The translations under genes were made by a program, and so were the position numbers. Below the pieces are notes generated by a model. It ran no database searches, was not told the DNA's origin, and saw only the letters and a list, made by a program, of their open reading frames with translations. From Thermoproteota archaeon (GTDB taxonomy: Archaea > Asgardarchaeota > Jordiarchaeia > Jordiarchaeales > Freyrarchaeaceae), in assembly GCA_029258835.1 (NCBI GenBank), contig JAPDJY010000023.1, positions 1 to 64,000 of the forward strand: DNA of 64,000 nucleotides. Direction: 5' to 3'. Below, in pieces: positions 11,033 through 30,056 of the stretch (its first letter is position 1; every line of letters begins with the position of its first letter).

Positions 11033-12961
11033 ATTCCTCGCATTGGAGTGTTCGTATGCTGCTGCGGCAAGAACATAGCGGGAGTCATAGACGTGGAGAG
11101 GCTCAGAGACTACGCGGCAACACTGAGAGACGTGGTTTGCGCTGAAACGTACATCTCGCTCTGCACCGACGCCGGGGCAGAACTAATAAAGTCGAAGATA
11201 GTGGAGCACGGCCTTGAAAGGGTCGTCGTGGCGGCGTGCACCCCAAAGACGCATGAAACAGTGTTTAGGAAGGTGATTTACGATGCAGGGCTCAGCCCAA
11301 GCATGCTCGAGTTCGTAAACATCAGGGAACACGACTCGTTCGTCCACGTGTCCGAGCCGGAGGAAGCCCTGGAGATAGCTAAGGACCTTATTAGGGCTGC
11401 GGTTGCTAAGGCGAGGGAGCTTGAGGAGGTGCCACGCATCCTCCTACCGGTGAAGCCCAGCGCCCTAGTGATAGGCGGCGGAATAAGCGGGATGCAGGCT
11501 GCCCTTGAAATAGCCGAGAGCGGGTTTAAAGTGCACCTCGTGGAGAAGGCTCCATCAATAGGTGGAAGGATGGCCATGCTGGACAGGACCTTCCCAACCA
11601 ACGACTGCGCCATATGAATCCTCGGCCCCTTGATGCTTGAGGTTTCCAGGAAGCCGGAGATAGAGCTTCTAACGTACAGCGAAGTGGAGTCGGTGGAGGG
11701 AGGCATCGGAGACTTCAGGGTGAGAGTGAGGAGGAAGCCGAGGTATGTGAGGGAGGAGGCGTGCACGGGATGCGGTGCTTGCGCCGACGTCTGCCCGGTC
11801 TTCGCGCCGAGCGAGTTCGACCTTGGCCTCGGGTCGAGGAAGGCGATCTACCAGTTTTTCCCTCAGGCTGTGCCGCCAACGTTCATGATAGACATGGACA
11901 GGTGCATCATGTGTGGCCTCTGCGAGAAGGCGTGCGTGCGGGACGCCATAGACTTTAACCAGGAGGAAGAGGTAGTCGACCTTTCGGTGGGAGCGATAGT
12001 CGTGGCTTGCGGGGGGGCCGCCTACGAGCCCAGGGTTGGAGAGTACGGCTACGGAAGGTACGCTAACGTCATAACCCAGTTCCAGCTTGAAAGGCTGCTC
12101 TCACCTAACGGGCCAACCGCAGGGGAGGTTGTTAGGCCCTCGGACGGGAGGAAGCCTAAGAGGGTGGTTATGATCCAGTGCGTCGGGTTCAGGAGCCTGA
12201 AGGAGAACCAGTACTGCTCAAACGTGTGCTGCATGGTTGCGTTGAAGAACGCCATGCTTTTAAAGCAGCACTTGGGGGACGTCGAGGTCATAGTGTGCTA
12301 CACTGACATTAGGGCTTCAGGTAAGGACTACGAGGAGTTCTTCATGCAGGCAAGAGAGCACGACGTAGTCTTTCTGAGGGGACGGGTTGGGGACGTGATT
12401 GAAGACCCTGAAACGGGAAACCTCACCTTGACGGTTGAGGACACGCTCTCTGGGAGGGTCTTGGAGCTGGAGGCTGACCTAGTCGTCCTGTCAACAGGGG
12501 TTGTCCCGTCAAGCGGCCTCAAAGAGATCTCCGACATGCTCAAGCTTGAACGCAGCCCTGACGGGTTCCTAAGGGAGTACCATTCCAGGCTTGCCCCAAC
12601 GGACACGAAGAAGCGTGGAATATTTGTCTGCGGAGACGCTCAGGGACCGAAGGCGATAGACGTCAGCGTGGCTCAGGGTAAAGCGGCGGCCGCATCCGTC
12701 ATAGGCCTGATATCTGCGGGCGAGGTCGAGTTCGAGCTGGGCACCGCCGTCGTCGAGTCTGAAAGGTGCAGTGGCTGCGGAATGTGCGAAATGGTCTGCT
12801 CCTACAACGCTGTGAGCGTCGAGGAGGGGGTTGCAGTCGTCAACGAGCTGGCCTGTAGGGGGTGCGGGAAGTGCGCGGCGGTATGCCCCTCAAAGGTGAT
12901 ACACCTTAGACGCTACAGGGAGCGGCAGCTTGAAGCGTACATCGACAACCTCTTCGTCTAG
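11033..12961 (+). CDS. hdrA: Heterodisulfide reductase subunit A, selenoprotein (Sec UGA at 11615-11617)
   Basis: ORFs 11048-11617 and 11630-12961 are in one frame joined by TGA in LDRTFPTNDCAI-U-ILGP, the known Sec/Cys position; GGGISG FAD motif and ferredoxin motifs; start codon uncertain. Confidence 0.92.
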
Positions 12962-12972
12962 GAGGCGTAACC

Positions 12973-13456
12973 ATGACGGGACGGGAAGACGCTGGAAGGG
13001 TTAAAGGCGTCAAGATAGCCGCGTTCCTCTGCTGGAAAAGGCGCTTCACGCCTCCAGAAGTGAGGGTACGGGGCTGCCGACATGGCTGGGACGATCAGGG
13101 CTCAGTACCCTGCAACCCTTAGACCGGTGAGGGTTCCATGCACGGGTAGGGTTTCAGCGGACCTCATCGCTAGAGCCCTATGGAAGGGAGCCGACGGGGT
13201 CATGGTCGTCGGGTGAAACATCGGGGAGTGCGAGTTCGAAAACGGCAACGTGCTGGCTTCGAGGCAGGTTGAGATGGTCCGGGACATGCTGGAGTTCATG
13301 GGCGTCGGTGCGGAGAGGGTCAAAATGTTCTATTGCTCCTCGGCTGAAGGCAAGTACTTCGCCGACGCTGCAAGGGAGATGAGCGAGAAGGTGAGGATGC
13401 TGGGGCCAAACCCGTTAAAGAGGGAAGCGAATGAGCCTGAGGGAGGAAACCCTTAA
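12973..13456 (+). CDS. vhuD: Hydrogenase iron-sulfur subunit D (MvhD/VhuD), two Sec, spliced: join(12973..13037,13060..13456), 153 aa
   Basis: Spliced translation AFLCWK-U-GYGAADMAG...RVPCTGRV...GADGVMVVG-U-NIGECEFENGN; UGA at 13061-63 and 13214-16 at the two known VhuD Sec positions. Confidence 0.88.
13038..13059 (+). other. 22-nt bulge-helix-bulge intron in vhuD mRNA
   Basis: CUGG/CCAG 4-bp helix, 3-nt bulges AAA and AAG, inner stem AGGCG/CGCCU; canonical cuts restore frame and motif. Confidence 0.82.
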
Positions 13457-13474
13457 AAGGGGGACCCCAGGCGA
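13431..13474 (+). promoter_or_regulatory. SECIS element, eukaryote-like (type 2)
   Basis: AUGA...GA core, helix GCCUG(A)GGG/CCCCAGGC, unpaired AAA 12 nt above the core, apical mini-stem CCCU-UAAA-AGGG; at the 3' end of a two-Sec gene. Confidence 0.72.
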
Positions 13475-13537
13475 CCCCCCCAGGAAGCGTGGGGGACCCG
13501 AGGAAGCCCTCCGGAAGCCGCCCGAGAGAGGAAGCGG

Positions 13538-14578
13538 ATGGGTGAAGGATTGAGAGGCGAAGTGGTGCTCCATGCCACCGGTAGGGAGGAGCCTGTCAAG
13601 ATTATACGCTACGCTCTCAGGCACCTTCTAGAGGAGGGAAGGGTTGACGGCGTGGTGACCGGGCGGCTGGCTGAGGGGGAATGCAAGCCGTCACTTGCCG
13701 TTTCATCCAGCCTTGAGGAGGCTGCATCGGCCCCTGTAGCCCAGATCATACTTTACGGCTACAAGAAGCTGGGCTCGGCGCCAAAAACCCTCGTGGAAAG
13801 GGCGGGGGAGAGGCTTGCCGTGCTCGTGAAGCCCTGCGAGGCGAGGGCGATAGTTGAGCTGGCTAAGAGGAGGAAGGTAAACTTAGACGACGTATACGTT
13901 ATAGGGTTTGACTGTCCGGGCATGAGGAGGGAGGAAGCCCACCCTCCGGAGGAGCTTGGACGCACCCTCAGCGATCCTCCCAGCAGGGAGGAGCTCAGAG
14001 ACGCTTGCAGGAGGTGCGAGGTTCACAGTCCACCCTACGCTGACGTGGTGTTTAGCTTCCTCACAAAGTCGGGGGTTCCAATCGTGGAGGCGAGAACGGA
14101 GAAGGGAGCCGCCCTCGTCATGCACTTAAGGAGTAGGGGGCTGGTGGCTGGGGAGCCAGCCCTCGAAGACGTGCTTGAAAGGGAGGAAGCTATTAGAAGG
14201 CTGGATGAGGAAGGGGGGAGGTGGCTGGTTGAGGAGAGAGAGAGGTGGCTTTCCGCCCCCGAAGAGGAGAGACTATCTTGGTTTAACAGTCAGCTCAACC
14301 TGTGCGTTAAGTGTGGGTCATGCATAAGGGCGTGCCCCCTGTGCTTCTGCAAGGACTGCATCCTCCTCTCCAGGAGGAGGGAGTACACGCCTTCACTCTT
14401 CATAGCCACTAGGATGCTTCACATGGCTGATTTGTGCGTCGGCTGCGGCAAGTGCGACGAGGTATGCCCTAAGAGCATACCGCTCTCCTTCATGTTCTAC
14501 CATGTAGGTAGAATGTTCACTTCGAGGTACGGTTACACGCCGGGAGCAGACTTCTCCAAGCCCCCCCGCATCGTCTAG
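13538..14578 (+). CDS. FdhB/FrhB-family beta-subunit-like protein with C-terminal 2x[4Fe-4S] domain
   Basis: AVLVKPCEARAIVEL, VIGFDCPG, CVKCGSCIRACPLCFC and CVGCGKCDEVCP motifs; follows hdrA-vhuD. Confidence 0.85.
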   Translation: MGEGLRGEVVLHATGREEPVKIIRYALRHLLEEGRVDGVVTGRLAEGECKPSLAVSSSLEEAASAPVAQIILYGYKKLGSAPKTLVERAGERLAVLVKPCEARAIVELAKRRKVNLDDVYVIGFDCPGMRREEAHPPEELGRTLSDPPSREELRDACRRCEVHSPPYADVVFSFLTKSGVPIVEARTEKGAALVMHLRSRGLVAGEPALEDVLEREEAIRRLDEEGGRWLVEERERWLSAPEEERLSWFNSQLNLCVKCGSCIRACPLCFCKDCILLSRRREYTPSLFIATRMLHMADLCVGCGKCDEVCPKSIPLSFMFYHVGRMFTSRYGYTPGADFSKPPRIV

Positions 14579-17006: not shown

Positions 17007-17131
17007 TGGTAGCCCGGCCAGGATTCGAACCTGGGTCCCAGGGTCCAGAGCCCCGGATGCGTAGCCCCTTGGAGCGCTTGGCCACTATGCCACCTAGCCA
17101 CAACCGTGCTAGGAGGCTACACCACCGGGCT
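17007..17131 (-). tRNA. tRNA-Gln(CUG) with two non-canonical D-loop introns (17116-17085, 32 nt; 17077-17061, 17 nt), CCA encoded
   Basis: Removing both gives the 76-nt AGCCCGG-TG-GTGT-AGTGGCCAA-GCAT-C-CGGGG-CTCTGGA-CCCTG-GGAC-CCAGG-TTCGAAT-CCTGG-CCGGGCT-ACCA. Confidence 0.9.
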
Positions 17132-28721: not shown

Positions 28722-30056
28722 ATGTCTCTTGACTCGTTTTTTAACCCTAGAAGTGTCGTGGTTGTGGGTGGCTCCTCCACCCCGGGGAAGTTCGGCTACC
28801 AGATTGTTAAGAACATTGTCACGTTAGGGTTTGAGGGGAGGTTGTACGTTGTTAATTCGAGGGCTGAGAGGGTCTTTGGTGTTCCAGCTGTGCCCAGAGT
28901 TGACGCGCTGGGCGAGGTTCCGGAGCTCGGGGTGGTTGTCCTCCCTCCCGACGCTGCCGTTGACGCCTTCGCCGAGCTAGCCGAGTTCGGGGTTAGAAGC
29001 GTTATTATGGCGTCTTCCGGATTCTCGGAGAGGGGGGAGGAGGGGGCGAGGCGGGAGGAGGCCATCCTGAGGGGGGCGAGGAGGTGGAGGGTTCGGGTGG
29101 TTGGGCCGAACAGTATAGGGCTCGTGAACTTCTCCAGGCGCTTCGCCCCGATGCTCACCCCTGTTAGGCGGTTTGAGGCTGGCGCTGCGAGCTACGTGGG
29201 GCATAGTGGGGGGCTGACCTGTAGCTTAGGGTGGTGGCAGCCGGAGGGGTTAGGGTTCAGCAAGCTAGTCCACGTTGGGAATGCTTGCGATGTTGGGGAG
29301 AAGGACGTCCTGGAGTATCTTGCCATGGACGGGGAGACAAGGGTGATACTCTGTTACTTCTGCAGGTTGACGGAGGAGGTTCTGGAGGGGGTTAGAGAGG
29401 CTGCCAGCGTTAAGCCTGTGGTTGCTTACTGTAGGGGTGAGGCTGAGAAGCTGAGGGATTCCGGCGCCATATGCGTTTCAGAGTATGGTGAAATGTTTGA
29501 TGCTGCGAGGGTGCTGCTGAGCGGTGTTCCAAGAGGGAACAGGGCGGCCGTTATCGGCCCCTCCTCTGGGGCGATCTCCCTTGCAACAGCGTGCTTTGAG
29601 GAGAACGGATTGGCACTAGCCCGTCTCTCGGAGGAAACCGAGAAGGTGATTAGGGAGAAGGTTTTAAGCCCGTTCAGCCCGAGCATCAACCCTGTGGACT
29701 ATTGGCCTCCATCCAGGCTAGACGGGGTCGAAGTGGGGGAGAAGCATAGAGTTGCCGTCAACGCACTCGTCAACGACGGCGGAGTCGACCTGGTCTTCTT
29801 GATTCTAGAGCTCATGGAGGAAATATCATTTGACGTGGAGGAGGCCTTCCGGGAGGCTGCCGGAGGGAACAAGTTGCTCGTAGCCGTCCTTTTCCAGGTC
29901 GAGGAGGGGGTTTCCGAGAAGCTGCGGAAGGGGTTAGTTAAGCTTAATATACCTTACTTCTGGGATGTGGAGAGAGCCGTCAGGGTTGTCGGAGAAGTGC
30001 TTAAATGGGCTCAGCGCCGCTCCTGCAACCTTCAAGCCAGCATCACAGCCAGGTGA
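28722..30056 (+). CDS. Acyl-CoA synthetase (NDP-forming) alpha-like CoA-binding protein
   Basis: FFNPRSVVVVGGS..PGKFG, RVVGPNSIG, HSGG, GN.CDV and NPVD motifs. Confidence 0.85.
   Translation: MSLDSFFNPRSVVVVGGSSTPGKFGYQIVKNIVTLGFEGRLYVVNSRAERVFGVPAVPRVDALGEVPELGVVVLPPDAAVDAFAELAEFGVRSVIMASSGFSERGEEGARREEAILRGARRWRVRVVGPNSIGLVNFSRRFAPMLTPVRRFEAGAASYVGHSGGLTCSLGWWQPEGLGFSKLVHVGNACDVGEKDVLEYLAMDGETRVILCYFCRLTEEVLEGVREAASVKPVVAYCRGEAEKLRDSGAICVSEYGEMFDAARVLLSGVPRGNRAAVIGPSSGAISLATACFEENGLALARLSEETEKVIREKVLSPFSPSINPVDYWPPSRLDGVEVGEKHRVAVNALVNDGGVDLVFLILELMEEISFDVEEAFREAAGGNKLLVAVLFQVEEGVSEKLRKGLVKLNIPYFWDVERAVRVVGEVLKWAQRRSCNLQASITAR

Follow-up and report, generated by a model that had tools for sequence, protein, structure and literature searches.

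A probable bulge-helix-bulge intron beside a selenocysteine codon in the vhuD gene of a Jordarchaeia archaeon

The stretch of DNA analysed here (64,000 nucleotides, nt; hereafter the window) corresponds to contig 7 of a Jordarchaeia archaeon genome (2.72 Mb, 91 contigs, estimated 94.7% complete) and carries vhuD, a gene of the mvhD/FlpD family that encodes a small, selenium-containing subunit of hydrogenase/heterodisulfide reductase and whose reading frame is broken close to its 5' end. We put at roughly 85% the probability that the 22 nt at 13038-13059 constitute a bulge-helix-bulge (BHB) intron of the vhuD precursor messenger RNA (pre-mRNA), which would be constitutively excised by the two-subunit (alpha/beta) form of the splicing endonuclease EndA and ligated by RtcB. 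In the transcript, the exonic CUGG would pair with the intronic CCAG, leaving the bulges AAA and AAG on opposite strands, and an intron hairpin and an exon-exon helix would close the two ends. An EndA composed of a catalytic alpha and a beta-like subunit would cut at 13037|13038 and 13059|13060, RtcB would join the vhuD exons, and the UGA of the mature mRNA would be translated as selenocysteine (Sec, U) within ...F-L-C-W-K-U-G-Y-G-A-A-D.... We infer cleavage, ligation and the enzymes performing each step from the features presented below. The gene comprises the following elements:

12960..12965, plus strand: AGGAGG ribosome-binding site, read from the sequence, 7 nt 5' of the vhuD start codon
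12973..13037, plus strand: exon 1 of vhuD, M...KIAAFLCW and the first two bases of a Lys codon (open reading frame, ORF, translation; conserved coding in five genomes)
13038..13059, plus strand: predicted 22-nt BHB intron (length and site from uninterrupted orthologues, BHB geometry from the fold)
13060..13456, plus strand: exon 2 of vhuD, the last base of the Lys codon, then U-GYGAAD... (PF02662; stop codon TAA 13454-13456)
13061..13063, plus strand: first Sec codon UGA, 1 nt 3' of the predicted splice junction
13120..13122, plus strand: UAG closing the unspliced frame (ORF 12973..13122, peptide of 49 amino acids, aa)
13214..13216, plus strand: second Sec codon, in VVG-U (Cys in genome G003)

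The start codon of vhuD (ATG 12973) stands 11 nt past the stop codon of hdrA. Its frame is lost after F-L-C-W-K and continues with unrelated residues up to TAG 13120-13122, so that the ORF translation agrees with the 49-aa product of the unspliced message described in an earlier note on this DNA. The conserved protein body, U-GYGAADMAGT...VVG-U...ECEF..., is encoded in the +1 frame, starting at TGA 13061 and closed by the stop codon at 13454-13456, and matches FlpD/PF02662 over profile positions 9-123 of 123 (E-value 8e-40). The first eight positions of the profile (K-I-x-x-F-x-C-x) are missing from this body and are encoded upstream, in the other frame. EndA cuts after the second base of each bulge, an established enzyme rule that is consistent with the structural literature. 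Excision of 13038-13059 restores the frame and gives TGC TGG AAG TGA GGG TAC, that is C-W-K-U-G-Y; excision of 13039-13060 instead leads to an identical protein. The predicted spliced junction, in DNA letters, is CTGCTGGAA|GTGAGGG, with the longer flanks CTCTGCTGGAA|GTGAGGGTAC, and the predicted junction peptide is ...IAAFLCWK-U-GYGAADMAGTIR. The spliced VhuD would read CWKU...VVGU, with the N-terminal C-x-x-(C/U) and the second (C/U) before x-x-x-E-C by which FlpD is recognised. The C-x-x-U-GYGAAD obtained by the EndA rule, already proposed in the earlier note, matches the motif of the uninterrupted Asgard orthologues.

The elements of the predicted structure are arranged as follows:

13025..13031, plus strand: 5' strand of the outer (exon-exon) helix, UCCUC, then U, then G (from the fold; imperfect helix)
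13032..13035, plus strand: 5' (exon) strand of the central helix of 4 base pairs (bp), CUGG (from the fold; paired in 100% of cells, five genomes)
13036..13038, plus strand: 5' bulge AAA, predicted cut after 13037 (invariant in five genomes)
13039..13053, plus strand: intron hairpin, inner stem AGGCG/CGCCU and loop CUUCA at 13044-13048 (stem 100% paired, five genomes)
13054..13057, plus strand: 3' (intron) strand of the central helix, CCAG (in relatives U-A becomes U.G and G-C becomes G.U)
13058..13060, plus strand: 3' bulge AAG, predicted cut after 13059 (AAA in the four relatives)
13062..13066, plus strand: 3' strand of the outer helix, GAGGG (from the fold and the alignment)

The minimum-energy fold of the 66 nt at 13015-13080 reaches -32.4 kcal/mol (z = -3.77), and 1 of 200 shuffled sequences was as stable. 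It is composed of UCCUC/GAGGG, an unpaired UG, CUGG(A)/(U)CCAG, a 3-nt A bulge, GGCG/CGCC with the CUUCA loop, and an unpaired AAG(U); slippage of one A within the same fold provides the alternative central helix CUGGA/UCCAG. The register CUGG / AAA / AGGCG-loop-CGCCU / CCAG / AAG corresponds to the bulge-helix-bulge core, in which the inner helix h' is a perfect 5-bp stem and the strands are arranged as in a transfer RNA (tRNA) intron, the 5' strand of the central helix being exonic and the 3' strand intronic. The BHB geometry and coordinates given in the earlier note, including the imperfect outer helix, were thus borne out by the fold, and the core pairs are kept in five genomes. A strict BHB scan recovered position 13032 with a length of exactly 22. 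Applied to the whole genome, the strict search returned 14,307 matches among about 6.6e8 position-by-length combinations, or about 2e-5 each; for the vhuD insert, homology independently determines both position and length.

Comparison of 41 related genomes revealed that the five members of the family, from two genera, all carry an insert at the identical vhuD site, the four others making up the second genus. The insert measures 22 nt in four of these genomes. The fifth, G001, has an in-frame version of 21 nt, with an inner stem of 4 pairs, a loop of 6 bases, and the 4-bp helix and both bulges unchanged; the base lost in G001 therefore comes from the hairpin, outside the BHB core. An uninterrupted F-L-C-(W/L)-K-TGA-GYGAAD is found in orthologues of the same order and of other Asgard groups (Freyarchaeia, Helarchaeales, Lokiarchaeia and Borrarchaeum), including about 35 further named Asgard loci and four contigs from metagenomes or Logan, about 50 loci overall. 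When 400 Asgard genomes were searched by pattern, the insert turned up in the five family genomes (5/5) and in none elsewhere; 14 pattern matches outside the family were rejected as inserts, their upstream TGGAAR lying in N-terminal codons. Among metagenome contigs, the pattern search gave 94 loci, only 4 of them vhuD, two being identical to the window, one of the G002 type and one of the G003 type. The closest other 44-aa fragments, P0004 and P0007 (80-82% identical), were rejected as intron carriers, with FLCWK-U uninterrupted. A search of this genome for paralogues of the vhuD intron sequence found none. The closest vhuD loci in named genomes are those of Candidatus Jordarchaeales, Jordarchaeia and Jordarchaeum metagenome-assembled genomes, in line with the Asgard host presumed before and placing it in the Jordarchaeia; the complete Freyarchaeia genome CP147778 belongs to the same order.

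Each of the five sequences maintains all 9 pairs that make up the central helix and the inner stem, one of these pairs showing a double compensatory change (A-U to G-C) and four a one-sided compatible (wobble) change. When the 3' partners were slid by 1-3 columns, pairing fell from 96% to 36-52%. The outer-helix pairs 11-50, 12-49, 13-48, 14-47 and 16-46 of alignment A1 are invariant, and their bases are also fixed by coding. For the spliced vhuD frame of the five genomes, the pairwise ratio of nonsynonymous to synonymous rates (dN/dS) is 0.06-0.21, at synonymous distances (dS) from 0.4 to above 2, mostly above 1, and exon 1 retains in all five GGAGG, the start codon and the K-I-(G/A)-A-F-L-C-W-K codons, with synonymous differences. 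Judged by these substitutions, both exons are under purifying selection. The orthologue alignment, suggested in the earlier note as a check, spoke for the intron, with same-site inserts in all family genomes, a compensatory change and a vhuD that is not decaying.

The same cutting rule was applied to four other genes of this genome (G000), EF-1alpha, aIF2gamma, hypD and cbf5, which carry the following inserts:

G000:C27 ~28,850-28,900 (locus L206), minus strand: EF-1alpha, 43-nt insert in GHVDHG|KSTL; CGGC/GCCG, bulges AAU and AAG, 10-bp inner stem
G000:C27 near 26,100 (locus L206), minus strand: aIF2gamma, 30-nt insert at the homologous P-loop site; CGGC/GCCG, bulges AAU and AAA
G000:C36 ~2539-2555 (locus L212), minus strand: hypD, 17-nt insert in the C-G-x-H motif; CGGG/CCCG, bulges ACA and AAG
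G000:C27:11929-11955, plus strand: cbf5, 27-nt in-frame insert with two stop codons; CACU/GGUG, bulges AGA and AAA, 8-bp inner stem

Removal of the insert yields GHVDHGKSTL in EF-1alpha, GHVDHGKTTL in aIF2gamma and VCGTHEHT in hypD; in cbf5, whose insert has no outer helix, it gives GTLDPKVTG and rejoins the split codon of the catalytic Asp. With vhuD, this makes five inserts in five genes, all obeying the rule of a cut after the second bulge base. Since only one EF-1alpha locus lies above the family cut-off, this essential gene needs splicing if an entire protein is to be made. The EF-1alpha intron is found neither in G001-G003 (sister genus) nor in Freyarchaeia G006, whereas the vhuD intron is common to both genera; introns have therefore been gained or lost within the family, and that of vhuD is comparatively old. 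Introns still seem to come and go, that of EF-1alpha being confined to this genus.

All five inserts are located within or beside codons of the most conserved active-site motif of the protein, as is the case for inteins and homing introns, the apparent site preference being for codons of C-x-x-U, the P-loop, the HypD C-G-x-H and the Cbf5 catalytic Asp. The 3' bulge is AAG or AAA in each of them. The introns at the paralogous P-loops of EF-1alpha and aIF2gamma have an identical central helix, CGGC/GCCG, which suggests sequence-directed spread between paralogous sites. An insert is likewise present at the P-loop site of aIF2gamma in G003 (locus L218, minus strand).

Some observations weigh against the BHB intron. 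The outer helix h consists of G.U, U.G, a mismatch and then three pairs, or else of G13031.U13061 followed by a bulged U13030, and this imperfect helix makes the motif a relaxed rather than a strict hBHBh'; (alpha-beta)2 endonucleases have been reported to accept relaxed motifs outside the tRNA body (PMC5829648, PMC2738675). The shuffle control for covariation was not significant, 113 of 500 shuffles reaching the observed score with five sequences only, and rates of change were therefore compared too. Identity between the genomes is 79% at paired intron positions, 100% at the three intronic bulge bases and 48% in the loop, the comparison rate at 40 fourfold-degenerate sites of vhuD being 45%. 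By these rates, the insert evolves like a structured RNA with a free loop, the loop changing at the neutral rate, and it is unlike a peptide-coding segment because in four of the five genomes it does not comprise a whole number of codons. In G001, the in-frame insert has no stop codon and its sequence is, by itself, compatible with unspliced translation. Furthermore, two genome-wide scans, one for strict and one for relaxed BHBs, each followed by ORF-fusion, coding-potential and start-codon filters, gave as many matches as controls in which the boundaries had been moved by 1-3 nt, and their matches were mostly ordinary gene boundaries (stop codon, ribosome-binding site, start codon). The scans missed EF-1alpha, hypD and cbf5 because of weak outer helices or short first exons; having missed verified cases, they are uninformative rather than negative and provide no estimate of intron number. 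Finally, metatranscriptome runs X18 and X19 come from a marine-sediment sample in which the DNA is present too; they cover parts of hdrA, the 3' end of vhuD and the downstream gene, and leave 12936-13298 uncovered, junction included. The RNA contigs do not reach the junction, which is why we infer splicing.

The insert could also be skipped by the ribosome instead of being cut out of the message. In such translational bypassing, of which phage T4 gene 60 is an example, take-off would occur at Lys AAA 13036-13038 and landing, 22 nt further, at Lys AAG 13058-13060, after which UGA would be read as Sec. Indeed, the insert is bordered in each of the five genomes by matching Lys codons (AAA...AAG or AAA...AAA), with a stable hairpin between them, but these A-rich triplets are simply the two BHB bulges, and no stop codon follows the take-off codon. 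The spacing of the 4-bp helix and the 3-nt bulges is kept even at 21 nt, although hopping needs no such spacing, and the inserts of EF-1alpha, hypD and cbf5 split codons, lack matching take-off and landing codons and yet follow the BHB rule; we regard bypassing as quite improbable. It is more improbable still that vhuD is a pseudogene, or is expressed by +1 frameshift read-through, with an insert that is disabling or neutral, for example a transposon footprint. The stop of the unspliced frame after 49 aa, the fragmentation of vhuD in public gene calls and a short GGAA(A/G) direct repeat flanking the insert would fit such a scenario, but not the dN/dS of 0.06-0.2 over dS above 1, the intact exons, start codons, ribosome-binding sites and Sec (or Cys) codons of five species, or the conservation of paired insert positions, which far exceeds that of fourfold sites. 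Read-through would, in addition, introduce 7 residues into a C-x-x-U motif left intact in every other Asgard orthologue, and variants of 21 and 22 nt cannot share one frameshift mechanism. The chance of a sequencing or assembly artefact is negligible. The presence of the 22 nt in DNA, which the earlier note wished to see confirmed, is attested by ten public contigs from ten samples (JGI, ENA and Logan), identical at 100% over exon 1, the intron and the start of exon 2; two of them are JGI contigs also recovered by the metagenome pattern search. The site is crossed with 0 gaps by Logan DNA contigs from two different studies (runs X1 and X9), and diverged versions exist in four other species. 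The DNA runs holding the stretch are hydrothermal-vent and marine-sediment metagenomes.

A regulated splicing, whereby the BHB intron would act as a switch resembling XBP1/HAC1 and the unspliced message would give the 49-aa peptide only, is an addition to constitutive excision rather than a strict rival of it, and seems unlikely. The XBP1 intron, 26 nt long, changes the frame and decides which protein is made. Removal of the vhuD intron likewise shifts the reading frame, the junction lies 1 nt before the Sec codon, and the intron has been retained across two genera despite dS above 1. On the other hand, no evidence of regulation is at hand, and the Sec-free housekeeping genes EF-1alpha, aIF2gamma, cbf5 and hypD share this kind of intron, for which constitutive removal is the simpler explanation. 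Coding for F-L-C-W and U-G determines the bases of the outer helix, which orthologues without the intron have too; the earlier proposal that this helix buries the UGA and that splicing gates Sec expression found no support.

Constitutive excision by EndA and ligation by RtcB would call on genes located elsewhere in this genome:

G000:C1:11942-12514: EndA alpha, 190 aa, with catalytic Tyr/His/Lys identified by eye
G000:C6:39157-40083: beta-like EndA paralogue, in which Ala apparently replaces the catalytic His, by eye
G000:C1:78966-80273: RtcB (E-value 2e-182)

EndA alpha is closest to the catalytic subunits of the heterotetramers of Aeropyrum pernix (E-value 4e-46) and Pyrobaculum aerophilum (1e-36). 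The position of the catalytic His in the beta-like protein was judged by eye against the Methanocaldococcus motif, and this second paralogue appears to be non-catalytic. Together, the alpha and beta-like subunits suggest an (alpha-beta)2 enzyme, and two EndA paralogues consistent with such an enzyme have been reported in 44 of 60 Asgard genomes (bioRxiv 10.64898/2026.10.13.758758). ARAGORN called 25 tRNA genes in the genome, most of them with introns, which agrees with the introns described in 92-95% of the tRNA genes of Freyarchaeia and Jordarchaeia, often at non-canonical sites (PMC11291895). In the window, a tRNA-Leu(aag) with a 27-nt intron was called by ARAGORN at 17007-17131 (minus strand), and Rfam matches a tRNA at 17010-17099; a default tRNA scan reported nothing. 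The ARAGORN row bore no contig name and was placed in the window by its coordinate agreement with the Rfam match.

A BHB intron of the cbf5 pre-mRNA of Crenarchaeota was reportedly described by Watanabe in 2002. Such crenarchaeal cbf5 introns measure 16-44 bp and have a BHB or relaxed BHB at their borders (Yokobori 2009, PMC2738675). The vhuD intron resembles them as a short intron within coding sequence, with a BHB or relaxed BHB, in a host with a hetero-oligomeric (alpha-beta) endonuclease, and both have been mis-annotated or taken for frameshifting. Some cbf5 copies are in frame and yet removed since they split a catalytic motif, a situation paralleled by the 21-nt vhuD insert of G001, and the cbf5 intron of the present genome interrupts the codon of the catalytic Asp, as crenarchaeal cbf5 introns reportedly do (PMC2738675). 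The two differ in their hosts, an Hdr-Mvh-type Fe-S/selenoprotein subunit of Asgard archaea (Jordarchaeia) versus a pseudouridine synthase of Thermoproteota, and in the vhuD junction lying 1 nt before a Sec codon; moreover, cbf5 splicing was shown experimentally, whereas that of vhuD is predicted. In kind, the vhuD intron is of the cbf5 type. What is new is that it occurs in another gene and another phylum (Asgard), and that it sits 1 nt ahead of a Sec codon.

The presumed enzymes of the vhuD intron are also those of archaeal tRNA and ribosomal RNA BHB introns, cut by EndA and joined by RtcB; unlike these, vhuD provides an mRNA without a tRNA body, and its outer helix is built of codons and imperfect. 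In Haloferax volcanii, a euryarchaeon with a single endA gene, the HVO_1309 mRNA has a BHB intron that was confirmed in vivo and in vitro as a splicing-endonuclease substrate (PMC7714728). This intron is located in the 5' untranslated region (UTR) and interrupts no reading frame, whereas that of vhuD lies in coding sequence. In the XBP1/HAC1 system, a non-spliceosomal endonuclease cuts a structured mRNA, and RtcB performs the ligation in animals (PMC13149111). The likeness to vhuD, a short frame-changing intron and RtcB, is one of outline only: XBP1/HAC1 employs the kinase/RNase Ire1 and twin stem-loops with 7-nt loops and is regulated by stress, whereas the vhuD signal is a BHB. The vhuD intron is thus not a member of that system.

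According to a 2020 survey, cbf5 of Crenarchaeota was still the only BHB intron shown to be spliced from an archaeal coding sequence (PMC7714728). Our search of the full-text literature, a coverage that leaves many subscription-journal papers outside, turned up no BHB intron reported for an Asgard protein-coding gene. We lean towards the view that the vhuD intron is the oldest shared member of a genome-wide set spliced by EndA and RtcB from ordinary protein genes of Jordarchaeia. If this is true, mRNA splicing by the tRNA machinery would be routine in an archaeon closely related to eukaryotes. The vhuD intron is conserved and maintained by selection in an energy-metabolism selenoprotein, and comparable introns accompany it in EF-1alpha, aIF2gamma, hypD and cbf5. 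It shows that mRNAs are probably also substrates of the tRNA-splicing machinery in Asgard archaea, the lineage nearest to eukaryotes, which bears on the origins of interrupted protein genes and of RtcB-type mRNA splicing (XBP1). Intron-bearing genes are at present called as fragments or pseudogenes, so that selenoproteome and metabolic reconstructions under-count intact genes.

The use of Sec in VhuD is deduced from the TGA at a conserved position across the Asgard vhuD loci and from the neighbouring hdrA:

11048..12961, plus strand: hdrA, directly 5' of vhuD in the same operon, itself a selenoprotein with an in-frame TGA at 11615-11617

TGA occupies the aligned first Sec position in every Asgard vhuD locus read, and Cys is present there in more distant homologues. 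The hdrA gene appears as two ORFs of the same frame parted by TGA; when this TGA is read as U, they give 637 aa with FAD/Pyr_redox and 4Fe-4S domains. The TGA stands in a conserved FPTNDCAI-U context, and hdrA and vhuD would thus form an operon of two selenoproteins with three Sec codons altogether. In G003 (loci L007 and L148), and in no other of these species, the second Sec of vhuD is replaced by Cys, and the first, after the intron, is retained. Public gene calls (loci L220-L229) split vhuD into pieces of 44 and 56 or 60 aa, missing exon 1, and also split hdrA at its Sec codon. A selenocysteine insertion sequence (SECIS) element was looked for in the vhuD operon, at 13457-13540 of the window and in the 3' UTRs of four relatives: there were zero Rfam matches, the 3' UTR fold had z = -1.67, and the five aligned 3' UTRs revealed no consensus structure. 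A conserved GCGUGGGGG follows the vhuD stop codon directly in the sister genus; the present genome has this motif 30 nt downstream of an earlier stop codon.

The genome-wide scans also listed frame-restoring BHB candidates at G000:C8:63575-63604 (plus strand), on the minus strand of G000:C4 (23 nt) and at G000:C2:1897-1923 (plus strand), the C8 insert having two AAA bulges and an 8-bp inner stem. An MvhD-like domain at G000:C6:52534-52878 was rejected as an interrupted gene, the flagged stops being the end of the gene. Among the RNA contigs, one of 100 nt from X18, at a depth of 2, joins 12866-12927 back to 12403-12432 with 8 other letters, AAGGCGTC, between them, and this back-join is probably an assembly chimera.

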